Of a DNA stretch of 64,000 bases, positions 28,884-53,088 are shown in pieces; positions within the stretch are counted from its first letter, which is position 1, and every line of letters begins with the position of its first letter. Source of the DNA: Promineifilum sp. (GTDB taxonomy: Bacteria > Chloroflexota > Anaerolineae > Promineifilales > Promineifilaceae); NCBI GenBank assembly GCA_020634335.1, contig JACKBY010000013.1, forward strand, positions 16,823-80,822. Reading direction: 5' to 3'. Both the position numbers and the translations under genes were made by a program. The notes beneath the pieces were generated by a model. That model saw only the letters and a list, made by a program, of their open reading frames with translations. It was not told where the DNA came from and did no database searches.

Positions 28884-31800
28884 TTAATTGCGCAAGATGG
28901 TCGGCAACAGAATTCTCTGCTGGCCGTCCGTCGGCCCCTTGATCTTCAGATTGACGGTCGCCACATTCGAAAGCTGACCGTTGCCGGCCTGATATGTGAA
29001 GCTATCCACACCTGCATAGCCTTCGTCGGGAACGTAGGTGAACGCCCCATCGGCATTTAGTGTTACTTCCCCGTGACTGGGCTTCGCGCCTATCTTGGCC
29101 GTCATGACCCCCGACAGGGGATCGACGTCATTGGCAAGCACGCCCGGCGCGGGAATCGTCAGTGTCTCGTCGACGTTCAGTTCGTAGGCATCGTCCACGG
29201 CGACCGGCGGTCCGTTGGGATCAAGAATGGTGATCACGACCGTGGCCGTGTTCGATGACAATCCGTTGCTGGCCTGATATGTAAAGCTGTCCTGCGCCGA
29301 ATAATCGAAGGAGGACGTATAGCTGAATGAGCCATTGGCATTGAGCGTTACAACTCCTTCGATCGGTTCGCCAATCAGGATCGCCTCCAACGGCAGTTGG
29401 CCGGGACTTTTATCATTGCCCAGGATGCCCGGAGCCGGAACGATCAAGGTCTCGCCAATGGCGACTGTGTAGCTGTCATCCACGGCCGTCGGCGGCACCA
29501 GGGTCACGTCAATGGTTACGCGCGCCACGTTCGACGCCAGGCCGTTGTCGGCTTTGTAGGTAAACTCATCGATACCCACAAATTCATTATCCGGCGTGTA
29601 GGTGAAGCCCCCGTTTGCCTGTAGCGTGACTTTGCCGTGGGCAGGTGATTCGACCAGGACTGCCGTCAGCGGATTGGAAGACGGATTATCGTCGTTGCCC
29701 AGTACGCCAGGCAGGTTAACCTTTAATGGGGTATTGATCGACGTGCTGAAGTAATCCGGTTTGGCCAGCGGCATGCCGGAAAAACGGTAATCGTCGGCAT
29801 GGAGAGAGGCGGGCGCGACGTTCTTAAGCAGGATCGAATCTCCGCCCGGCAGACTGATCAATGTGTCGCCTTCCTGAGCCTGAACGGTCAGGTCGCCGGG
29901 TTTCAGGGTGCTGCGGGCGCTAAAGTCGAGTACATCATCGCTCTCGGGGCCGGGCGTGAAATCCGTGATGATGTCATCGCCGCTTCCAGTCCGGAAATAG
30001 AAGGTGTCATTTCCCCGCCGGCCGGTGAAAGTATCGTCTCCCCCGGCCCCCTCCAGCCAATTATTCAGGGAATCACCTACTAGCGTATCGGCCAATGGTG
30101 AGCCAATGACTCGCTCGATAGAGCGCAATGAATCGCCTGTGGCGTTGCCGCCGGTGGCGACGCCGGTGAACAAGTTGATGCTCACCGCGCCGGGCGATCC
30201 CGCATAGGAGGCGGTATCTTGGCCGGTTCCGCCGAGTAAACGGTCGGCATCCATCCCGCCGATGAGGACGTCGTTGCCGGCTCCGCCCTTTAGCACGTCT
30301 TGCCCGGCGCCGGCGTCGACCTGATCATTTCCCCGATGTGCCAGCATCACGTCATCTCCCGAAGTGCCGGTGAGTGAGTCGACATTTGGTGTTCCCGGGT
30401 GTGTCACCGGCAGACTGATGCCAAGCGTAGGCCCACCCTGGATCAGATAGGTGTAACCTGTGTCATTGTTCACACCCGGGCCGGCGTTCGGCGCGCCGAT
30501 GAGAAATTCGTCATAGCCGTCGCCGTTCATGTCGCCGGCCGAACTGATGGTTTGTCCGGTTTGATCGCCGGCCACGGCGCCATCCAATCGGAATCCTCCG
30601 TCACCCAGGGTGTCGAGCGATAGAGAAGCATCAAAAGTGGTACGGCCTAGTACGACGTAGGTTTTTCCGGAGAATCGCATGCTGCCCGTGCCGGCGGTTG
30701 ATGCGCCGATAATGAGGTCTTCCAATCCATCGCCATTCACGTCGGCCGCGCCGACGGCCGTGCCCGCCTCGCCGTTTGCCTCATTGCCGACGAGGCGAAA
30801 ACCGTTTGAACCGTTCAAGCTGGATAAATTAAACGTAGTCGAGTATGAAGATTGTCCAAACACGACGTAGGCCTCGCCCATGTGGGCGGCGGCATAGGGC
30901 GCGCCGATCACCAGATCGAAGCGACCGTCACCGTTCACGTCGCCCGCCGAGGCGATTGACCGGCCGGCGTTGTCGCCTTTGGCAATCCCCTCAATTTTGA
31001 AACCGTTACTGCCGTTGATCGCCGACAGGTTAAATTTGGCTGTGAAGTTCGGTTGGCCGAAGATGATATAGATGGTTCCAGTGTCCAAAGAACGGCCGGT
31101 CAGATAGCTGCCGGCAACAACGGCGATGTCATCGTAGCCGTCCTGGTTCAGATCGCCGGCCGATCTGAGAATCTTGCCGGTCGAGCTTTCGGCTGCCACG
31201 CCGTTGATCAGAAAGCCGTCCGAACCGTTCAGTGTGTTCAGGTCGATTACCGGCGGGAATGAATGACGGCCCATCACGGCAAATGCCTGGCCCACCCACT
31301 CTTTCCCGCCGACTGTAGCCTCCGGCGCGCCGATGAGCATGTCATCGTAGCCGTCGCCATTGATATCCCCGGCCTGTGCCACGCCGGCCCCCGTCCGTGC
31401 ATCGATCACGATCCCATCGATTCGAAAGCCGTTAGTCCCGTTCAATGTCTCCAGATTGAGTTGAGCCGGAAATGTGGCTCGGCCGAAAATGACATAGGCT
31501 GCACCGGCATCTTCGATGTCGTCGTCGGCCTCAACCCCAGGCGCGCCGATGATCAAATCGTCATAGCCGTCTTTGTTGACGTCGCCGGCTCCACTAACTG
31601 CGTATCCGACTTCATCGTTGAAGGCGAGGCCACTTACGCGAAAGCCGTTGCTGCCGTCCAGATCGTTAAGAGAGAGAGAGCTTGGGTTGGCTGCCCGACC
31701 CAATATAACGTAGGCCTCGCCCGCGCTCTGCGTGCCGTTGGGAGAAGCCGACGGCGCACCGATGATGAAGTCATCTAACCCGTCACCATTGATATCGCCG

Positions 31801-32075
31801 GCGTTTCGCAACGATCGTCCCGCCTGATCGCCGTCGCTCCGCCCCGTGATACGGAAGCCGTTCGGGCCGTTCAATGAGCCCAAACCGATCACGACGTCGG
31901 CGGTTTGATCCTTGTTATATCCACTTCCAAGCGCATTTCCGGTCGTCAACAAACAAATAAACAGGGAGGCGAGGCTCATATAATAGATACGCCTCGACAG
32001 GCTGAAATCGCTGCTACGGCCGCTGCGCTCGCGCATGGCGAACGTGCTGAAATGGATCAATTGAGTGATTTTCAT
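28884..32075 (-). CDS. large secreted adhesin-like protein: FG-GAP/integrin-alpha propeller, RTX-like Ca-binding repeats, three cadherin-like/Ig repeats
   Basis: repeated AGDxNGDGxDDxIIGAP; GGAGNDVLIGG-type repeats; three PxAxxDxY...GVLxND...GxFTYxP...DxFTY units. Confidence 0.9.
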   Translation of the reverse strand: MKITQLIHFSTFAMRERSGRSSDFSLSRRIYYMSLASLFICLLTTGNALGSGYNKDQTADVVIGLGSLNGPNGFRITGRSDGDQAGRSLRNAGDINGDGLDDFIIGAPSASPNGTQSAGEAYVILGRAANPSSLSLNDLDGSNGFRVSGLAFNDEVGYAVSGAGDVNKDGYDDLIIGAPGVEADDDIEDAGAAYVIFGRATFPAQLNLETLNGTNGFRIDGIVIDARTGAGVAQAGDINGDGYDDMLIGAPEATVGGKEWVGQAFAVMGRHSFPPVIDLNTLNGSDGFLINGVAAESSTGKILRSAGDLNQDGYDDIAVVAGSYLTGRSLDTGTIYIIFGQPNFTAKFNLSAINGSNGFKIEGIAKGDNAGRSIASAGDVNGDGRFDLVIGAPYAAAHMGEAYVVFGQSSYSTTFNLSSLNGSNGFRLVGNEANGEAGTAVGAADVNGDGLEDLIIGASTAGTGSMRFSGKTYVVLGRTTFDASLSLDTLGDGGFRLDGAVAGDQTGQTISSAGDMNGDGYDEFLIGAPNAGPGVNNDTGYTYLIQGGPTLGISLPVTHPGTPNVDSLTGTSGDDVMLAHRGNDQVDAGAGQDVLKGGAGNDVLIGGMDADRLLGGTGQDTASYAGSPGAVSINLFTGVATGGNATGDSLRSIERVIGSPLADTLVGDSLNNWLEGAGGDDTFTGRRGNDTFYFRTGSGDDIITDFTPGPESDDVLDFSARSTLKPGDLTVQAQEGDTLISLPGGDSILLKNVAPASLHADDYRFSGMPLAKPDYFSTSINTPLKVNLPGVLGNDDNPSSNPLTAVLVESPAHGKVTLQANGGFTYTPDNEFVGIDEFTYKADNGLASNVARVTIDVTLVPPTAVDDSYTVAIGETLIVPAPGILGNDKSPGQLPLEAILIGEPIEGVVTLNANGSFSYTSSFDYSAQDSFTYQASNGLSSNTATVVITILDPNGPPVAVDDAYELNVDETLTIPAPGVLANDVDPLSGVMTAKIGAKPSHGEVTLNADGAFTYVPDEGYAGVDSFTYQAGNGQLSNVATVNLKIKGPTDGQQRILLPTILRN

Positions 32076-44762: not shown

Positions 44763-45251
44763 ATGAAGCGATTGTTGCTGCTGCGCCATGCCAAGTCGAG
44801 TTGGGGCCAGACGAATTTGTCGGACTACGACCGGCCGCTGAACGACCGTGGCCGACGTGATGCCCCTCGCATCGGGCGGTTGCTCCGGGAGGAAGGGCTT
44901 GTCCCCAATCTGATTGTCGCCTCGTCCGCCAGGCGCGCCACGACAACGGCCGAGCTGGTCGCTGAGGCGGCGTCCTTCGAGGGCGAGTTACGTTACACCG
45001 ATAAACTTTACCTGGCCGAACCGGGAGCTTACATCGCGCTGGCGCGCCGGGTTGACGAAGCAGTCAACACGCTCATGCTGGTCGGACACAATCCTGGTAT
45101 CCAGGAACTTGTCGCCCTTCTAACCGGCCGGGACGAGCGGATGGCGACTGCAACCCTGGCTTGTGTGGCGCTGCCGATCAAGTTGTGGTCGAAGCTGGCC
45201 GCTGATGGTAAGTACGAGTTACAAAACATATGGTGGCCGCGAGAGTTGTAG
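44763..45251 (+). CDS. sixA: SixA-family phosphohistidine phosphatase
   Basis: LLRHAKSSW, DYDRPLNDRG, LVGHNPG. Confidence 0.9.
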   Translation: MKRLLLLRHAKSSWGQTNLSDYDRPLNDRGRRDAPRIGRLLREEGLVPNLIVASSARRATTTAELVAEAASFEGELRYTDKLYLAEPGAYIALARRVDEAVNTLMLVGHNPGIQELVALLTGRDERMATATLACVALPIKLWSKLAADGKYELQNIWWPREL

Positions 45252-45336: not shown

Positions 45337-48300
45337 TCAACTCTCAAGATGAATGTGCAACTTGCTCAAACTTTTATTTTGGGCCACCCATTGGCCGACC
45401 AGGCCGATCCGCAATTCGTAGAGGGATTTACCCTCCACAGTCACTTCATGCATCACGTCCCGCTCGACTAACAAATTGAGGGCTTGGGTCGCGTCGGCCG
45501 GGTTCAATTCAATGCTGTAGGTCCGCAGATAGTCGATAATTTCCTCCGGATGGAGCGGCTCATTGCGATCCATGAGGTGGGCCGCCGCGGCGAGCACAGC
45601 GCGCTCGGCCAAATTCGACCGTTGCCACAGATAGGCGAAATGGACTTCTCCCAAACGCAGCATCTCATCGAGGGCAACGTTGACGTCGGAGATGGTCACG
45701 TAGCCGGTTTTTTGCAAATTGGCCTGCTTGACCAAGGTATAACAGACCAGTTGCAGGAAATAGGGATGTCCGGCAGTGACGCGCAATATCTTGTCTAGCG
45801 CTAGATCGTCGTAGATCAGGTTAGGCGCGACCGGCTCGCATATGAGTCGTTCGGCCGCCTGGGGGCTGAGAAAGTCGATCTTGCGGTATAGGGCGATATT
45901 GAACAGAACCGACCAGTAGTCGGCACTCATTTCCTCCAGGCGCCGCGTGCCGACGAATACGAATCCCAGACCGCTGCTGTGCTGCATCAGATGCCGCATG
46001 TAGGGGAAAAACGTTCGTGGGAGGATGTCGTCGGCCACCATCGATTCGAACGCCTCGAATTCGTCGAACACCATCAGTAACGTGGCCTCGGGTGGCAGGA
46101 GGCGTCGAGCGGCCGGCAGGAATTCGCGCTGGAAAATGCGCGCCGGATCGGTATTCCAGACATCGATAGGCGGCACCGCCAACTTCAGCCCCCGCGCGCC
46201 TAACGAGTCGGCGATGTGCCAGGCGAATTCCTGAAGCAAGGCCGGCATCCCGGGCGACACGCCCAGAGATTGGCAATCAATGTAAATCGGTATCAGATGC
46301 GGCGGTAGATAGTCCTCGAGACGAAGCAGGAGGGAGGTCTTGCCCGTCCGCCGCTGGCCCACCAGCATGAAGACGTTGCGTTGGCTGTGCGTGCCGGCAT
46401 GTTCGGCGATGAAGTCAAACAGCTCCTCACGACCGTAGAACAGGGGATTATCTTTTCGCAGCGGCGTGCCGGGCAGGTAGGGATTGACGATCGGCGCAAA
46501 CTCCCTAACCGGCGGCAGCAGATGAACCATATCGCCGAACGCCGCGGTTTTGTCCCGCCGATTGCGATCATCGTACGTGAGCGCGAGGCTGATCCTGAAC
46601 CGGTCCTCGGCTTGGGGTTCGATCAGAAATTGTACCTGTCGCGAGTGGCCGGACGGCAAGAACGGTATGACCTGGGGTTCGCTGTGCACCTGGTAAGCGG
46701 GGTTGTCGCTGAGAGCGGCGATGATGTTTTCGGCCGCGGCCCGGCCGGTGTTGCGGATTTCCATCGCCACGTGGGTCTGGCGGCCGTTGGGAGCCAGCCG
46801 CTTGGTTTTCAAGGAGACATCCAACTCGGCACGACCCCGCTGCTCTTCGATTTCGGCCGTCAGCAAACCCGACCAGCGCCGGCCGATGGCCCGCACCAGC
46901 GTCCGCTCGACGCTGGGCGAAAATTCAAACAGCTGATCCTGAATCTGCCTGAGACGGACGGCCGCCTGATTCAGATAGACAAGCCTGTCATCAGCCGCTT
47001 CCACCCGATCGCTATCGCGCATATTGGTCAGCACAGGCAATAGCATGTCCAGAGCGGGGGACCATTCCTTTCGTTCTTCCAAAACCGCCAGCATCTTCAC
47101 GTATTGCGGGCGCACAAGGCCGAGTTCGATGATAGAGGGGGCTTCAAGCATCGTCTGGCACGTGCGATAAATCAGGCGGCGCTGCGACAGATTGCGCCAC
47201 ACGTTTTCGGATGCGGCCAGATCATCCAGCGTGCGAGTGATGATGGGCAGTCCCGCCTGCGGCCTGTTCGCCAGCAAGAATAACCCATCGGAGAGATTCG
47301 CCAGAGCCGGATTGCCGGCGCGGCGAGCTTGATTAGCCAACTGCAGGAGGAAGTCGGGCGAGCCGCCCATCTGCGCATACTGTTGTTCGAGCATGGGTAG
47401 GGTGTTGGCCGGGTCCTGGGTCAGGCGCTTGTAGAATCGACCGGCCTGGGCGGCCGGCGTTTGCGCCTGTCGCCAATAAGCCATGAGGGCGGCGAGGCCC
47501 AGAAAGCCGAGCGAGCCGGCCAGAACCGGCAGCGTCACGTTTCCGGCCACTGGTGTGGCGACTGTTGGGCCCAGGGGAGGAGTCACGTACCCGCGATAAA
47601 AGCCGTCGCTAAACCGCAGGCGATAGTTGATCCGCGTCGTCCCTGCCGGCATGGTGACGCCCGGCCAAAAAAGTTGGCCGTTGCCCGAGACGAGCTGTTG
47701 CTCGGATACTGGCCGCCAGGCGTCAATGACCTGATCATGTACCTCTAGCTGGACGGCGACCGTATCGTTTTCCACATCATTGACCTGGATGCCCACGGAG
47801 AACTGTCCCTGGTCCACCTCGATGACAGGATGGGTAAGCAAAGGCGGGCGATTTTCTTCTTCACGAAAGAGCCGAATCAATCCATTCTGTGTGATGGCCA
47901 ACAGATCAGGCGATTGGCGGGAAGTGCGCTTGAGAAGCGCCAGGTCAAAGATGCTGCTGGCTAGGGGCAACTGTAGTACCAGACGAGGGTCGCGTGTCTG
48001 GAGCTGCTCATACAACCAAACGTCGCCTTCGCGGGTGCCGAATGCGCCGGTGTCCGGACGACCATCCTTGTCGAGATCGTCCCAACTCATGGCCTGCACG
48101 TCTCCCAAGTCATCCAACGACCACGTGACGGCCGGCTGGTTATCGGTGACCACGATCTGTTTAAGCTGAGCATCGGTGGTGGCTAATAAAAAGGCGGTCG
48201 CGTTTTCCTGGAACGCCTCAACCGCGCCCACGTCAGATGGTTCCACTACCACCGGCTGCTCGCCCACTGGATACGGCCACGTCCATTGGGACATTTCGAT

Positions 48301-50310
48301 GCCGCGGTGGTTGAAACCGTGCATCTGGCCGTCATCAGTAAAGACTACCAGGCGGACCGACAGTTCCTGGCTGCCGGGCTGCTGCACGGGATATACGGCG
48401 GAGATGGGCGCTTCCAGTGTTGCCAAGATGGAGTAGAACACGTCACCGGTACTCGGCGACAGGCGCACGATAGAGTTTTCGCCCACGGCGAGAACGGCAT
48501 CCGGATCGCCCGGCGTATGGTTAAACGCAATGAGGTCCCTGACGGCGCCGATTTGCTCGCCTATAGAAACCTCCCAAATCTGGTTACCGTCCAGGTTAAA
48601 AGCCATGACATCGCCGGATTGGGTACCCAGCAGGATAGTAGACTCGCCCGTGCTGATCTGATCGTCGACCAGGAGGGATGTAACCTGGTCGGGGATGATT
48701 GTCTCCCAGAGGCGCTCGCCGGTTGACTCGCGAAGCTCCAGCCAGCTAATGAGCATCTGCCCTTCTAGCGTTTCGTCGGCCGGCGGTCGCTGGCGACGCA
48801 CCACGGCAATACGGGGTGACTTCCCAAGTTCGTAACGCACGCGCCCCAGGTGGGAGATGATTTCCCCGGGGGCGTGGAGCCAGCGAATGGTGCGATCGAC
48901 GGCCAGCGTGTGGAGGCGGCCGTCGCGCGTGCCAACGATCACTTCATCTTCGCCATCCTCGTCCAGGTCTTGAATCAGCATTGTCGTTGGCTCAGCGTCG
49001 AGGATGTATTCCCATTCCTGGATGTATTCGCTGTTGCCCACGCCCAAGCCGATCAGTTGCAATGTGGCGAACCGGGCCAGCAAGAGTTCGTAATGATTGT
49101 CGTTGTTGACATCTACCAGGCGAGTCAGGCCGGGTAAATCTGTGTCATTGAGTTTGGCCAACGTCTGGCCGTTGTTGCCCAGAAGCAGAACGTCGGCCAG
49201 TTCGCTGGCCGTTGCCAGCGGCTCCAGAATGGCCGCCAGGGGGGTTTGGCCGGGCGCGGTGCGGCCGCCCGCCGGCAGCAAGGCCAGCACGCGCCGGTTG
49301 GCGTCGCGGGCCAGGTTGTTGGTCCATAGCCGCCGTCCCTGCTCGGAATAGGCCGTGACACTGCCCGCGGCCGTGCCGATGGCCAGCGCCGGTTCGTCGG
49401 GCAACTCCACAGCCGCCAGCGCGGTAATCGGCCGGTTCAACGTCCGGTACCAGAGCAACTCCCCGGATGGGGCATAGATATCTACTTGCCCAAAATTGGT
49501 GCCGACGGCAATGGCTGTGCCTGTCGGGCCAAATGGAACTCTGGCCAGGCTGGTGATGCGCCGGGAGATAGCTTGCTGCCAGGCGATGGACCCATCGTCC
49601 AGATAGATTAATTGGCTGAACCGGCGCGATGTAAAGATGCCGACCACGATCTCTTTTTGTCCATCGTTGTCAAAGTCATCGACGATGAGTTGCGGATTCA
49701 CGCCACCACCCGCGTCCTCGACGCCAAATTGCCAGACCGGATCGCCATTGATGTCGAGCGCCATTAATTCGCCGGATGCCAGAAGCAGCAGAATGTCCTG
49801 AATGCCGTCGGCCCCATAGTCGAACGATTCGATAGTGACGGGGGCGCTGGCGACGGTGATCGGGACGCGCCATTGTTCTTCACCGTCTTTGTCGAGCATC
49901 GTGACGTAGTCTGCGCCGGCCAGAACGATCTCCTTGATTGACAATTGTTGCTCGATGCTGTCGACCGTGCCGATGGCTGTGACCGGCTCCTGACTGACGT
50001 ATGTCCACTCTTGCTTGCCGTCGGCCGCCAGGAGCGTTAGATGTCCGTTACGGTCGAGAACGATGAATTCGTCGACACCGTCGCCGTTGACGTCAGTGGT
50101 GACGATATTTTCGATGCGTCCGGACGCGGCGAATTGCCAATAGCTTTGGGGGCGAGCGGCTCCTTGGGCGGCGACGAGGGTAGAAGTGCTTGCCAGCACG
50201 GCGACGGGTATCAACAACACTATCCACCCCCATCCGGCACTTTGTCCGAAGTGATGGATGAATCGAGTGATAAGTCCGCGTAACCGTGGAGCGAGATGTA
50301 GCGCGTTCAA
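45337..50310 (-). CDS. membrane receptor-like STAND ATPase: signal peptide, extracellular FG-GAP/PQQ-like beta-propellers, TM helix, helical plus Ig-like region, C-terminal STAND/AAA ATPase
   Basis: DVNGDGVDE/DFDNDGQKE/DLDEDGEDE/DLDKDGRPD motifs; TM LPVLAGSLGFLGLAALMAYW; NPYLPG..FYGREE, GQRRTGKTS, VFDEFE, TAGHPYFLQ. Confidence 0.85.
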   Translation of the reverse strand: MNALHLAPRLRGLITRFIHHFGQSAGWGWIVLLIPVAVLASTSTLVAAQGAARPQSYWQFAASGRIENIVTTDVNGDGVDEFIVLDRNGHLTLLAADGKQEWTYVSQEPVTAIGTVDSIEQQLSIKEIVLAGADYVTMLDKDGEEQWRVPITVASAPVTIESFDYGADGIQDILLLLASGELMALDINGDPVWQFGVEDAGGGVNPQLIVDDFDNDGQKEIVVGIFTSRRFSQLIYLDDGSIAWQQAISRRITSLARVPFGPTGTAIAVGTNFGQVDIYAPSGELLWYRTLNRPITALAAVELPDEPALAIGTAAGSVTAYSEQGRRLWTNNLARDANRRVLALLPAGGRTAPGQTPLAAILEPLATASELADVLLLGNNGQTLAKLNDTDLPGLTRLVDVNNDNHYELLLARFATLQLIGLGVGNSEYIQEWEYILDAEPTTMLIQDLDEDGEDEVIVGTRDGRLHTLAVDRTIRWLHAPGEIISHLGRVRYELGKSPRIAVVRRQRPPADETLEGQMLISWLELRESTGERLWETIIPDQVTSLLVDDQISTGESTILLGTQSGDVMAFNLDGNQIWEVSIGEQIGAVRDLIAFNHTPGDPDAVLAVGENSIVRLSPSTGDVFYSILATLEAPISAVYPVQQPGSQELSVRLVVFTDDGQMHGFNHRGIEMSQWTWPYPVGEQPVVVEPSDVGAVEAFQENATAFLLATTDAQLKQIVVTDNQPAVTWSLDDLGDVQAMSWDDLDKDGRPDTGAFGTREGDVWLYEQLQTRDPRLVLQLPLASSIFDLALLKRTSRQSPDLLAITQNGLIRLFREEENRPPLLTHPVIEVDQGQFSVGIQVNDVENDTVAVQLEVHDQVIDAWRPVSEQQLVSGNGQLFWPGVTMPAGTTRINYRLRFSDGFYRGYVTPPLGPTVATPVAGNVTLPVLAGSLGFLGLAALMAYWRQAQTPAAQAGRFYKRLTQDPANTLPMLEQQYAQMGGSPDFLLQLANQARRAGNPALANLSDGLFLLANRPQAGLPIITRTLDDLAASENVWRNLSQRRLIYRTCQTMLEAPSIIELGLVRPQYVKMLAVLEERKEWSPALDMLLPVLTNMRDSDRVEAADDRLVYLNQAAVRLRQIQDQLFEFSPSVERTLVRAIGRRWSGLLTAEIEEQRGRAELDVSLKTKRLAPNGRQTHVAMEIRNTGRAAAENIIAALSDNPAYQVHSEPQVIPFLPSGHSRQVQFLIEPQAEDRFRISLALTYDDRNRRDKTAAFGDMVHLLPPVREFAPIVNPYLPGTPLRKDNPLFYGREELFDFIAEHAGTHSQRNVFMLVGQRRTGKTSLLLRLEDYLPPHLIPIYIDCQSLGVSPGMPALLQEFAWHIADSLGARGLKLAVPPIDVWNTDPARIFQREFLPAARRLLPPEATLLMVFDEFEAFESMVADDILPRTFFPYMRHLMQHSSGLGFVFVGTRRLEEMSADYWSVLFNIALYRKIDFLSPQAAERLICEPVAPNLIYDDLALDKILRVTAGHPYFLQLVCYTLVKQANLQKTGYVTISDVNVALDEMLRLGEVHFAYLWQRSNLAERAVLAAAAHLMDRNEPLHPEEIIDYLRTYSIELNPADATQALNLLVERDVMHEVTVEGKSLYELRIGLVGQWVAQNKSLSKLHIHLES

Positions 50311-50336
50311 TTTAGTGGCGGCGGCGAACGGCCGAC

Positions 50337-51668
50337 CTATTCTTCGGGGGGGCGCAGGGCATAGCCCACGCCGCGCTCGCTAATGATCCAGTTTCCAAAC
50401 GGATCGACAGCCCGTCGCAGGCGTTTGATCAGCGTTTTTAGCCGGTCCGGATCATCGACCAGTACGTCACCCCAAACCGCCATTTCCAGGTCTTCACCGC
50501 GGACGACCTGACCGACGTGCCGGCACAGTCGCACCAGAATACTGAATTGCGACGTAGTCAGACTCAGTTCCCGGCTGTTACCCCATACCTGATGCCGCTG
50601 TTCGTCGATCACGAAGGGACCGGCCTGTATCAGGCCGGGAACATCCTGACGGCGCACGAAGCGTCGTAGAATTTCGCTGCTGTACAGATAGGTATTATCC
50701 ACTCTTTGCAGCAGGCATTGTTGCTCCAATTGCCGTAGACTCTCTGTCGGCCCGTCGGCAATTGCCAGTACGTGTTGATCCTCCGGCGACAAATTCTGCC
50801 AGAGATAGCCCAAATGGGACTCCGCCTCGACCTCGATTGGACCGTCCAAAACCTGGAAATCGGCTTCCGTAACTTGGTTTAGGGATACATCAATTTCGCC
50901 GGAATTGATGGCCTGAATGGCGTGATAGCCGGCGATGTGGAGGAAGAAAGGGTGCAGCCCGACAAGCTCAATAAGATAAGCGATCAATTCTGGCGGCAGG
51001 ATCTGTCCCGTTCGTTCCAGCCGCTGGCGAAAAAGCTCATGGGCCTCGGCTTCCGTGAAAAGGCCCAGCGGCATGGTGACGAAAATATTGAAAAATGGGG
51101 AACTGAGTACAGTCTCTTCTGCGGTAATGGCGAATAGAGGCCTCTGGCTGGCCGTTAGATAGGCTAATCCATACTTGGTCGTGAGACCGCGCAGGCGCGC
51201 GAAGAAATAGGGCGTCAGGTGCTGATTGGCAGCCAGCAACTCAAACTCATCCAAAAGCACTACGACGCTTGACCCCTGCTGGTAGATTTGCTGCAAGGCG
51301 CGGTCAAGGGCGCGATACGTCCCCGGCTGCTCGGCCGTGTCGACGGTGAGGTCTGCCTGAGCCGCGGCGTCCAAAAGTCCATCGAGCAGCAACTCGTAGA
51401 CCTCTTCCGGCGGCGAGCCGGCCAGCTCCTGGCAATCGAGCAAAACGAATAGGCTATGGGGCGGATCCAGTTGAAACGGGGCGCGAACCGACGCATTGCC
51501 AATATGCAGGAGCAGAGAACTTTTACCGATGCGGCGTGGGCCGATCAGTGAGATGCTCTGGCCGTTGCGCAGCAAGCCCAACATTTGAGTTAGCTCCGCT
51601 TCGCGGCCGACAAAGTCTTCGACGTGGCGAATCGCGCCACGATGGAAAAAAGGATTATCTACACCCAT
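50337..51668 (-). CDS. STAND/AAA ATPase fused to C-terminal OmpR/PhoB-type winged-helix DNA-binding domain
   Basis: NPFFHRG..FVGREAE, GPRRIGKSS, LLDEFE, GLHPFFL; LTTSQFSIL..VWGD..LKTLIKRLRRAV..ERGVGY. Confidence 0.88.
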   Translation of the reverse strand: MGVDNPFFHRGAIRHVEDFVGREAELTQMLGLLRNGQSISLIGPRRIGKSSLLLHIGNASVRAPFQLDPPHSLFVLLDCQELAGSPPEEVYELLLDGLLDAAAQADLTVDTAEQPGTYRALDRALQQIYQQGSSVVVLLDEFELLAANQHLTPYFFARLRGLTTKYGLAYLTASQRPLFAITAEETVLSSPFFNIFVTMPLGLFTEAEAHELFRQRLERTGQILPPELIAYLIELVGLHPFFLHIAGYHAIQAINSGEIDVSLNQVTEADFQVLDGPIEVEAESHLGYLWQNLSPEDQHVLAIADGPTESLRQLEQQCLLQRVDNTYLYSSEILRRFVRRQDVPGLIQAGPFVIDEQRHQVWGNSRELSLTTSQFSILVRLCRHVGQVVRGEDLEMAVWGDVLVDDPDRLKTLIKRLRRAVDPFGNWIISERGVGYALRPPEE

Positions 51669-51756
51669 AGTACACTCTATTGTAATGCTGAATGAGTTTA
51701 AAAGGTAATAGCCTTCTCGCCCGCTCAGCCCGCCATCATTCGCGCCGTGCAGTGAC

Positions 51757-51785
51757 TTGCCGCCGGTCGGTCAAGTACGTAAAAT
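51757..51785 (+). promoter_or_regulatory. sigma70-type promoter giving a probably leaderless mRNA for the YprB-like gene
   Basis: TTGCCG-N17-TAAAAT, 7 nt before in-frame GTG 51793; no SD. Confidence 0.55.
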
Positions 51786-51792
51786 CGAACAT

Positions 51793-53088
51793 GTGAACGA
51801 TGAAATTGGTTCCCTCTTGCGACAATTGGGGGTCACCAAAGGCGCGCGGCATCTACGCTCGGCTCCTGCCCCGCGCGAGGTCGAAGAAAGACCTGCTCGT
51901 GACGATGGCACGCCACCGCCGCTGGAGTTACTGTTGCCAGGCGGCCGGCTGATGGAGGCCGCGGACGGAGCCTGCTTCGTCGTGGAGCGCGTCTATCCCA
52001 CTCACTATAGACACGGGAACGACACCCTGGCCGATCTGTTGGCCATCGAGCCGGGTGAGGGTGCCAGGTATGCGCTGGATCAACGTCTGTCCGGGCAGAC
52101 GTTTCGCGATTTTCTGTTTCTTGATACGGAAACAACCGGCCTGGCCGGCGCCGGCGCGCTGGCTTTCATGGTAGGCGTGGCTTTTTTTGAGCCCCATGTG
52201 GCTGTCGTCGAGGGGCGGGTTGTCGAACTGGATGTCCTCGTCGTTCGCCAATACTTTCTGCGCGACCATGGTGACGAACCCGTCATGTTGCGCCTGCTGG
52301 ACGAACTGCTCACCAACAGGGCAGGTCTCATCAGCTTCAATGGTCGCTCGTTCGACGTGCCTTTGCTGGACAACCGCTATTTGATGAATCGATTGCGTGG
52401 CCGCCTGCTCGACGTGCCCCACATCGATCTATTGCCGCCGGCGCGGCGGCTCTACAGGGCGCGCCTGGGGTCGTGCGCCCTCGGCTCGCTGGAGCAGAAC
52501 CTGCTCGGACTGCATCGCACGCAGGATGACGTTCCCGGCTGGCTCATTCCTTCGCTCTACTATAACTACTTGCGCACCGGAGATGCCCGTGAATTGACCC
52601 GGGTCTTTTATCACAATGAAATGGACATGCTGTCAATGGTGACGCTGGCGGCGCGAATCTTCAGACAGTTGTCGACTTCAGTATGTGATGATGCGATCGA
52701 TCTGGTGAGTCTTGGGCGTTGGCAGGCGGATTTGGGCCTTCACGCCGAGGCGGAGCGCACGCTTAGATCCGCCCTGGATAGCGATTTACCTCTGGAAGCC
52801 TACCAACTGGCGTTGTACCACTTAAGCAATTTGTATAAGCGCACCAATCGCCGTCCTGAGGCGGTCATCGCCTGGCAACAACTGGCGGCTGTCAGCACCA
52901 GCGACGTCGCGGCCTATGTGGAATTGGCCAAACATTACGAGTGGCACGCCGGCGACGTTCCCGCGGCCGTTGAATGGACAGAGCACGCCCTGGCGCTGCT
53001 CGACCGGCTGCCGCTTACCCCGAACACGCGCTTGACACGCTCGGAGTTAACCCACCGGTTGCGCCGTCTGGAGAAGAAGCTCGGTTAG
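51793..53088 (+). CDS. YprB/MrfB-like RNase H-fold exonuclease with C-terminal TPR-like helices
   Basis: LFLDTETTGL, SFNGRSFD, HIDLL, YHNEMDMLS (DEDD), ELAKHYEW. Confidence 0.88.
   Translation: MNDEIGSLLRQLGVTKGARHLRSAPAPREVEERPARDDGTPPPLELLLPGGRLMEAADGACFVVERVYPTHYRHGNDTLADLLAIEPGEGARYALDQRLSGQTFRDFLFLDTETTGLAGAGALAFMVGVAFFEPHVAVVEGRVVELDVLVVRQYFLRDHGDEPVMLRLLDELLTNRAGLISFNGRSFDVPLLDNRYLMNRLRGRLLDVPHIDLLPPARRLYRARLGSCALGSLEQNLLGLHRTQDDVPGWLIPSLYYNYLRTGDARELTRVFYHNEMDMLSMVTLAARIFRQLSTSVCDDAIDLVSLGRWQADLGLHAEAERTLRSALDSDLPLEAYQLALYHLSNLYKRTNRRPEAVIAWQQLAAVSTSDVAAYVELAKHYEWHAGDVPAAVEWTEHALALLDRLPLTPNTRLTRSELTHRLRRLEKKLG

Follow-up and report, generated by a model that had tools for sequence, protein, structure and literature searches.

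A receptor and an OmpR-type winged-helix protein that may signal by STAND-STAND assembly in Anaerolineae

Bacterial transmembrane signals usually reach DNA through one-component, His-Asp two-component, extracytoplasmic function (ECF) sigma or Ser/Thr kinase routes. Two adjacent genes in a 64,000-nt stretch of Promineifilum sp. DNA (contig JACKBY010000013.1; the whole stretch is called the window here) raise the question of how a membrane receptor could control a transcription factor when both carry an ATPase of the STAND type (signal transduction ATPases that have numerous domains). P0002 encodes a soluble protein whose STAND module (type A) precedes a winged helix, and P0001 encodes a single-pass membrane receptor that ends in a second STAND module (type B). 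We prefer, with moderate confidence, the reading that this Anaerolineae receptor and its OmpR-type partner let an outside signal switch genes by nucleotide-dependent co-assembly of the two STAND modules, not by phosphotransfer. The gene pair itself stands as a genuine, conserved feature, of a more general kind than the initial annotation of this DNA had supposed.

The linked receptor and regulator genes

The two open reading frames (ORFs) lie on the minus strand, P0002 upstream and P0001 downstream, and the intergenic gap is 26 nt, so that the co-oriented pair of the initial annotation was recovered as described (Table 1). P0002 exceeds the Pfam cut-offs for nSTAND2 (55.9 bits; cut-off 24) and Trans_reg_C (50 bits; cut-off 26.2), the latter bearing out the OmpR/PhoB-type winged helix-turn-helix (wHTH) that had been placed at the end of the soluble protein. 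In the winged helix, R409, I414, R418, G433, G435 and Y436 are invariant among 20 sequences. The NCBIfam response-regulator matches to P0002 cover the winged helix only and fall far under their cut-offs, and for AAA_35, P0002 scores barely under the cut-off (26.8 against 27) while P0001 has no listed match. P0001 matches PQQ/FG-GAP/BBS-type propellers and AAA_22 in Pfam, reaches 15.6 bits with nSTAND2 (under the cut-off), and has only sub-threshold BamB matches in NCBIfam. In a Pfam search at E ≤ 0.1, both proteins lacked HisKA, HATPase and receiver domains, as the initial annotation had claimed for HisKA and receiver domains.

The AlphaFold model of P0001 residues 51-922, built on a 68-row alignment, has a mean predicted local distance difference test score (pLDDT) of 88.2 and contains about 63 strands followed by a seven-strand sandwich. 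In the model, the ectodomain is most simply two propellers of eight blades each plus an immunoglobulin (Ig)-like domain. Its best Foldseek matches are tandem-WD proteins, and the second propeller aligns to WDR41 (Z 32.8, root-mean-square deviation 2.2, 314 aligned) and also to the eight-bladed Tako8 and to BamB; this fold search, which covered the ectodomain and, on its own, the second propeller, gave generic propellers and no ligand clue. Kinship with the BBSome, raised by Pfam matches to BBS2/BBS7/PTHB1, was set aside as generic propeller similarity. The model of residues 941-1657 (16 rows; pLDDT 80.4; predicted template modelling score 0.43) consists of a helical bundle, an Ig-like sandwich and an AAA+/lid/winged-helix module. 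The sandwich has a weak CARDB match (E 0.043) with its strands present in the model, and the same region is covered by most of the best 150 matches to the type-B profile. The bundle is also detected in type-B proteins with other inputs, and it may act as a transducer or autoinhibitory arm. For the STAND-B model, the closest Foldseek matches are Cdc6/Orc1 and the archaeal ATPases PAB2304 (2qen) and SSO1545 (2fna), with E values of ~1e-8 to 1e-6.

P0001 has an N-terminal hydrophobic stretch at residues ~21-50. Among 67 full-length receptor homologs, a signal-peptide-like core (12-residue mean of at least 2.0) is found in 65, a transmembrane (TM) helix with hydropathy of at least 1.5 in 66, and a higher positive charge after the helix than before it in all 67. 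Because of this pattern, the propellers are predicted to be outside and the ATPase inside. It supports the N-out/C-in topology that had been proposed from the window alone, and the helix placed then at about 47473-47538 maps to residues 925-946. The receptor ectodomain evolves faster than either STAND part. Compared with the window proteins at 66 shared loci, ectodomains have a median identity of 37%, whereas Ig+STAND-B reaches 66% and STAND-A 68%.

Linkage was examined in the best 80 GTDB loci found via P0002. The receptor starts within 300 nt of the P0002 ortholog in 72 of them (in 62 as one full ORF), which answers the call of the initial annotation for a linkage check across genomes; two further loci end at a contig edge and six have no adjacent receptor. 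Since the gene pair recurs across so many genomes, its presence in the window is not a chance match. A full receptor was kept elsewhere in all five of the unlinked genomes searched. Within the family, P0002 was present in 24 of 24 genomes (61-95% identity) and the receptor in the same 24; an overlapping sample gave 10 of 10 genomes. In a class-wide sample of 301 genomes, 35 had matches at E ≤ 1e-40, with full STAND+winged-helix orthologs in nine genomes of five other families and one truncated ortholog. The partner is the same propeller receptor in family f53, and in f12, f26 and one f73 genome a multi-pass membrane protein that shares the Ig-STAND tail. Neighbours of the pair in the related loci include eno, clpP, sixA, trpB and trmFO; judged from these sequences, inheritance looks vertical and the neighbourhoods look stable.

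The two ATPase subtypes and their predicted contact

The A and B modules are homologous and distinct, sharing 25% identity over 320 aa, and hhalign relates them with a probability of 99.75 over 298 columns. The type-A module of P0002 carries NPFFHRG (NPF), the Walker A motif GPRRIGKSSLL (GPRRIGKS), the Walker B motif DEFE, an LRGL helix with the invariant R160, SPFFNIF and HPFFL (HPFF). The type-B module of P0001 carries NPYLPG (NPY), GQRRTGKTSLL (GQRRTGKT), DEFE, RHLMQH with the invariant R1439, YWSVLFNIA and HPYFL; SPFFNIF marks subtype A, and YWSVLFNIA subtype B. The common signature of the initial annotation stood in part, as its motifs occur in both proteins but F.GRE.E and G.HP[FY]FL, in the form written, occur only in P0002, the receptor having FYGREEL and AGHPYFL instead. 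Walker A and Walker B are intact on both sides in 73 of 73 pairs; some distant A proteins have altered nucleotide-site motifs. In the hhalign alignment, the A helix FFARLRGL matches the B helix FFPYMRHL, making R160 and R1439 equivalent as well as invariant, and both could be arginine fingers.

The pair has the marks of MNS-type STANDs, which Leipe et al. reportedly set out in 2004 as an N-terminal hhGRExE-type motif, Walker A/B and a GxP-type motif in the helical domain: FVGREAE in P0002 and FYGREEL in P0001, GK[ST] and DEFE in both, and GLHP and AGHP, respectively. As in that clade, the window pair gives ATPase_2, AAA_35 and nSTAND-type profile matches, and the AAA+ core, helical lid and winged helix lie near archaeal ATPases and Cdc6/Orc1, a comparison that was made for B. 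Another MNS family for comparison is Npun2340/2341, which we take to be adjacent gene pairs. This family is named among the MNS-clade STANDs in the part of PMC8195603 that we consulted.

We modeled Ig+STAND-B with STAND-A as a 1:1 dimer, with ATP and Mg riding along. The interface score ipSAE was 0.68, compared with 0.00 for the best of three controls, which were unrelated proteins and not other STANDs. In calibration, this mark was reached by 116 of 157 solved pairs and 2 of 215 mismatched pairs, counts that are only roughly valid here because we used our own alignments and the ligands rode along. The runs agree in at least 87% of contacts, with a partner pLDDT of at least 85. In the model, the LRGL helix and SPFFNIF of A are placed onto the face of B formed by NPY, Walker A, DCQ and Walker B, and the region around R160 falls in this interface. 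The contact is therefore predicted to be head-to-tail, with the usual arginine-finger geometry of AAA+ proteins, and the STAND-STAND heterocomplex anticipated in the initial annotation now has a modelled form. In a covariation analysis of 130 A-B pairs (effective number 86), the mean z was +1.0 for the 25 best contacts of the model; among the 100 top-scoring pairs, five fell on both interface faces where 1.1 would be expected, although the top matches look phylogenetic and the data overlap the model alignments.

The two modules might instead form independent homo-oligomers, each STAND self-assembling and the linkage reflecting co-regulation or an old tandem duplication. Both faces are conserved in both proteins, as a homo-oligomer would need, and one lineage separates the genes. 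However, the A-with-B pairing persists whether the genes are tandem, reversed or divergent and through many domain fusions, the A-B heterodimer model passes, and the unlinked genomes retain both genes; we consider independent assembly very improbable.

A wider module, its relatives and the proposed mechanism

The A-with-B pairing extends well beyond the orthologs of the window pair. In a phylum sample, 18 of 20 loci picked by B carried an A gene, one being cut by a contig end and one having no A. A lies within 3 kb of B in 48 of 80 metagenome loci, and beside B in 32 of the 34 loci with at least 1.5 kb on both sides, some of which are orthologs of the window pair; the arrangements comprise A-B, B-A, divergent genes and arrays. 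A search with the B profile gave 3,680 cluster representatives at E ≤ 1e-30, with STAND-B at the C-terminus in nearly all of the best 150. Hydrophobic segments were counted in 109 of these 150 (M start, >900 aa): at least three occur in 59, one or two in 37 and none in 13. Pfam assignments for 30 of the best 150 include dCache-HAMP-GAF, HAMP-GAF, kinase-AAA-GAF-PAS, Reg_prop, WD40, NosD/beta-helix, fn3, HEAT and FG-GAP, and multi-TM and RelA/SpoT inputs were also met. On the output side, a hand count of 120 matches to a cyclase-bearing A domain, a biased query, gave 77 Trans_reg_C OmpR winged helices, 28 class III cyclases, 11 protein kinases and four proteins without an output family, and A is also fused to CHAT protease and TIR. 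A dCache-HAMP-GAF-B gene is directly followed by an A-kinase gene in two loci (L165, L240), and in L029 one membrane B stands in a row with A-CHAT, A-winged helix and A-cyclase genes. As read from these domain orders, inputs on B and outputs on A are swappable across genomes, and the A/B module has the domain grammar of a histidine kinase and response regulator with the phosphotransfer modules replaced. Because B inputs and A outputs are swapped across genomes, the two-component logic suggested by the initial annotation is better supported than the window sequence alone showed. The source names of the matches are mostly missing.

Two arrays, L029 (G055:C3:148000-167500) and L028, each combine one five-TM STAND-B with several STAND-A genes, which are stand-alone, fused to CHAT, an OmpR winged helix or a class III cyclase, or truncated.

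How, then, could the window pair transmit a signal? In the sequence of steps we propose, the A-B contact is modelled and we infer the others. A macromolecular ligand would bind the fast-evolving propellers; the TM helix and the helical/Ig arm would free B from autoinhibition and allow it to load ATP; active B would recruit A into an A-B oligomer at the membrane, possibly an alternating one; clustering would juxtapose the winged helices for DNA binding, standing in for the receiver phosphorylation of OmpR proteins; and ATP hydrolysis would reset the switch. Class III cyclases, Ser/Thr kinases, CHAT proteases and TIR domains are dimer- or proximity-activated, and since these are the other outputs of A, we favour activation by clustering over release.

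In the opposite direction, the unstimulated receptor would keep the transcription factor bound at the membrane until the signal let it go. The predicted A-B interface fits either direction, and MalT, held at the membrane by MalK, is a known case of a sequestered STAND regulator; however, the sister A outputs are proximity-activated enzymes, and the one B of L029 with its several A outputs suits a recruiting platform, so that we regard sequestration and release as rather improbable. It is also conceivable that a hidden third component signals and that the STAND pair is its scaffold, the candidates being the convergent SixA-like phosphatase gene (on the opposite strand in 49 of 80 loci) and a GAF-PAS histidine kinase encoded ~2.9 kb from the receptor 3' end. 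Neither candidate gene was seen next to the pair in families f53, f12 or f26, and neither protein has a phospho-acceptor domain, which makes a scaffold role hardly credible.

Co-assembly of paired STANDs, the coupling that we favour, has a described relative. Kaur et al. 2021 (PMC8195603, section 15 and Fig. 6C) present a two-gene nSTAND2 operon (Pfam PF20702) with one MNS-like STAND per gene, laid out as '??+STAND+wHTH -> nSTAND2+wHTH+effector' and predicted to form a toroidal hetero-multimer with arginine fingers in both partners. According to that section, the operon is mobile, one partner is inactive and bears a HEPN or GT4 effector, and the pairs are read as counter-invader systems; the nSTAND2 table in supplementary file 6 contains Proteobacteria and one Calditrichaeota row, and no Chloroflexota, receptor or OmpR domain. 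Compared with that description, the window pair likewise consists of adjacent genes with a STAND each, one of them of the nSTAND2 family, and with a conserved arginine in both; P0002 and most A proteins are above the PF20702 cut-off. The window pair differs from the operon as described there as follows: First, both nucleotide sites are intact (73 of 73 pairs) and there is no eroded effector-side partner. Second, the output is a Trans_reg_C winged helix in place of a HEPN RNase or GT4, and the partner is a membrane receptor. Third, the pair occurs in all same-family genomes sampled, in stable neighbourhoods, in contrast to a mobile and patchy operon. As it departs from the definition in its active partner, its output and its lack of mobility, the pair is not a member of the nSTAND2 system as defined; it is kin to that system, probably works like it at its core, and is an nSTAND2-kin variant probably turned to signalling. 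The view of the initial annotation that no described system has this architecture therefore holds for the receptor and transcription-factor fusions only, since the two-gene, two-STAND operon is described in the same section.

The genome of the window contains three more A/B pairs, an AAA_35-type pair and a lone EAD7-A. One pair consists of EAD7-STAND-A followed by STAND-B-TM-Reg_prop, an inverted (N-in) version of the receptor (L247, G000:C34:82829-86696), and another joins a short B to a long A. In the third (L249, G000:C17:5279-10159), as also in L140 and L158, a RelA/SpoT-like protein (HD, TGS, ACT) is fused to STAND-B; in this genome the RelA-like part is degenerate, and a degenerate A-OmpR winged-helix gene follows. 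Such RelA/SpoT-like-B fusions may represent a stringent-response-type input on the A/B module. The AAA_35-type tandem pair (L250, G000:C34:197049-201873) consists of a STAND with an N-terminal extension followed by STAND-TM-WD40. In family f83 (L121, L123-L125, L128, L129, L131-L133), the B proteins are FG-GAP propeller-(HEAT)-Ig-STAND-B proteins of ~1600-1700 aa, and their genes are divergent from STAND-A genes of ~465 aa without a Pfam match in the C-terminal part; some of these genomes have more than one copy. A plasmid scan matched three of 72,556 records, all from Acinetobacter ursingii, where the module appears in a restriction-modification setting outside Chloroflexota (L159:1062-8827, NZ_MH220285.1).

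These surroundings raise the alternative that the window pair is an immune or conflict sensor-helper pair, in which the propellers detect a phage, a predator or a non-self filament and A-B launches a defence programme. This differs from transmembrane gene control in its role, not in its coupling. An immune role is in line with the nSTAND2 match above cut-off, the variable ectodomain, the sister pairs with EAD7, TCAD9, TIR, CHAT or restriction-modification parts, and the counter-invader reading of nSTAND2 pairs in the cited section of PMC8195603. However, nearly each of the 24 same-family genomes has one orthologous copy at 61-95% identity, beside the housekeeping neighbours eno, clpP, sixA, trpB and trmFO, and the pair has no toxic effector, no match among the PADLOC families (2023 library; none at E ≤ 0.001) and a conserved housekeeping-type -10 element. 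Defence genes, by comparison, are usually patchy. We consider an immune role improbable.

Several points weigh against signalling by A-B co-assembly across the membrane. Related pairs occur in conflict contexts (EAD7, TCAD9, TIR, NACHT and HEAT fusions), L159 encodes a type I restriction subunit R, an N6-methylase-STAND-B and a weak STAND-A annotated as 'ATP-binding protein', and the f83 relatives with similar propellers are soluble and have no signal peptide. Because of the conflict-context pairs and the soluble propeller-B proteins, the module is not confined to transmembrane gene control. The genes are unlinked in 6 of the 80 loci. The pass of the A-B model may reflect family likeness, since its controls were unrelated proteins and ORC/Cdc6 heterodimers in the PDB resemble the fold. 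Finally, a quick-method tree of 86 rows, with several long branches and two short or weak rows left out, places A and B on the two sides of a 98-supported branch with similar subtrees; its A/B labels come from hidden Markov model (HMM) scores, which introduces some circularity into the split, and genes that lie side by side share their descent in any case, so that little can be concluded from the tree by itself. The heterotypic pairing of A with B is the stronger point.

Among other signalling systems, the window pair resembles the histidine-kinase two-component systems in its membrane sensor and OmpR-type output and in the modular inputs and outputs on two dedicated partners, with dCache, HAMP, GAF, PAS and Reg_prop on B and regulator-type outputs on A; it differs in that the coupling modules are AAA+/STAND domains. 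Among hybrid sensors, BT4663 has a double propeller; it is not among the listed ectodomain fold matches. The part of PMC8534201 that we used gives this Bacteroides protein a Y_Y_Y domain and scissor-like signalling. P0002, like MalT and AfsR, combines a STAND with a DNA-binding domain, and unlike them it has no sensor repeats and no BTAD (Pfam), has its winged helix at the C-terminus, and has its sensor on a second, membrane-bound STAND. MalT and AfsR/SARP proteins carry their sensor in the same chain, as C-terminal repeats, and form homo-oligomers. For one-component STAND regulators, the consulted part of PMC6468293 describes nucleotide-dependent multimerisation. The logic proposed for the window pair, a sensor STAND nucleating an output STAND, is that of paired nucleotide-binding leucine-rich-repeat receptors (NLRs). 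The eukaryotic pairs, such as NAIP-NLRC4 and the plant sensor/helper pairs, belong to the NACHT and NB-ARC clades, use C-terminal repeats for intracellular sensing and set off death or inflammation. In contrast, the sensor of the window pair is N-terminal and across the membrane, and its STANDs are of another clade. In the literature searched, mostly papers outside subscription, no receptor-STAND/STAND-OmpR pair or such signalling grammar is described; nor is such a receptor-regulator pair found in the parts consulted of Kaur 2020 (PMC7159879), Lee et al. 2026 (bioRxiv 10.64898/2026.01.04.697583) and the BREX survey (PMC12839542). The 589-clade STAND table of bioRxiv 2026.01.04.697583 may list the A/B clades.

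Whether A/B is a general prokaryotic signal-transduction class parallel to the His-Asp systems, with STAND-B as 'transmitter', STAND-A as 'receiver' and ATP-dependent hetero-assembly between them, is in our judgement evenly balanced. If so, STAND-B would end sensor proteins and STAND-A would begin outputs such as OmpR winged helices, cyclases, Ser/Thr kinases and caspase-like proteases, and a further route from membrane to DNA would be added, with two ATPase modules in the transmitter and receiver positions. The window pair would be a family-wide conserved prototype in filamentous Chloroflexota, in which the sensor/helper logic of NLRs is applied to transmembrane gene regulation, and would offer a bacterial, non-lethal model of NLR pairing. 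Such a class would also account for many orphan Chloroflexota annotations of the 'AAA ATPase' and 'winged-helix' kind. The predicted A-B interface names residues for mutation.

Gene coordinates, transcription signals and neighbours

The promoter hexamer of Table 1 belongs to a conserved element: 78 of 79 orthologous loci have TA[CAG]AAT within the 70 nt that precede the gene, compared with 6.35 in shuffles (maximum 12), and mostly 6-10 nt from the ATG. The P0002 transcript is thus probably leaderless. A strict sigma-70 consensus scanner made no call at this conserved site, and the same scan found no minus-strand terminator. In three wastewater metatranscriptome runs from one study, short contigs cover parts of both genes and leave the P0002/P0001 junction unbridged, which speaks neither for co-transcription nor for any expression level.

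Table 1. Features of the pair and of its surroundings in the window
Feature	Position	Strand	Residues	Basis or remark
P0002, output gene, 443 aa	50337..51668	-		type-A STAND + OmpR/PhoB winged helix
Type-A STAND module	50634..51656	-	~5-345	Pfam nSTAND2 above cut-off, invariant columns
OmpR/PhoB-type winged-helix DNA-binding domain	50349..50630	-	~347-440	Trans_reg_C, E 3e-13
-10 hexamer TACAAT, sigma-70-type	51679..51684	-		conserved; 10 nt before P0002 ATG
-35-like TTACCT	51703-51708			upstream of P0002; read off sequence
P0001, receptor gene, 1657 aa	45337..50310	-		TTG start; single-pass membrane protein, C-terminal type-B STAND
Predicted signal peptide	50167..50310	-	~1-48	hydropathy
Two tandem beta-propellers, predicted extracellular	47854..50160	-	~51-819	AlphaFold model
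Juxtamembrane seven-strand Ig/fibronectin type III-like sandwich	47584..47841	-	~824-909	model secondary structure
Single TM helix	47473..47538	-	925-946	hydropathy; basic residues C-terminal of helix
Cytoplasmic alpha-helical bundle	46837..47487	-	~942-1158	AlphaFold model
Cytoplasmic Ig-like (CARDB-like) sandwich	46519..46824	-	~1163-1264	directly before STAND-B in this branch
Type-B STAND module with own C-terminal winged helix	45340..46485	-	1276-1657	
SixA-like histidine phosphatase gene	44763-45251	+		convergent on receptor gene
RNase_H_2 + TPR gene	51757-53088	+		divergent from P0002
1063-aa surface protein gene	28884-32075	-		
Two tandem paralogues, 477 and 392 aa	61378-63949	-		

Beside the -35 region upstream of the winged-helix gene, TGTCAC-type direct repeats with 11-bp spacing occur in 8 of 79 loci (L058-L061, L064, L066, L068 and L114), and resemble a PhoB/OmpR-family operator. 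Such a repeat was considered as an autoregulatory operator of P0002; it is missing from the window and was therefore not assigned.

The SixA-like gene, seen on the opposite strand in the loci counted above, recurs in several genera. On the other side of the pair, the RNase_H_2 + TPR gene shares an 88-nt intergenic region with P0002, and its synteny is mainly within the genus. Farther away, the 1063-aa surface protein has FG-GAP repeats, RTX calcium-binding repeats and Big_9/cadherin-like domains. The two tandem paralogues have N-terminal hydrophobic segments and share an 'ILITEWGW' region, labelled glycoside-hydrolase-like from a look at the sequence.

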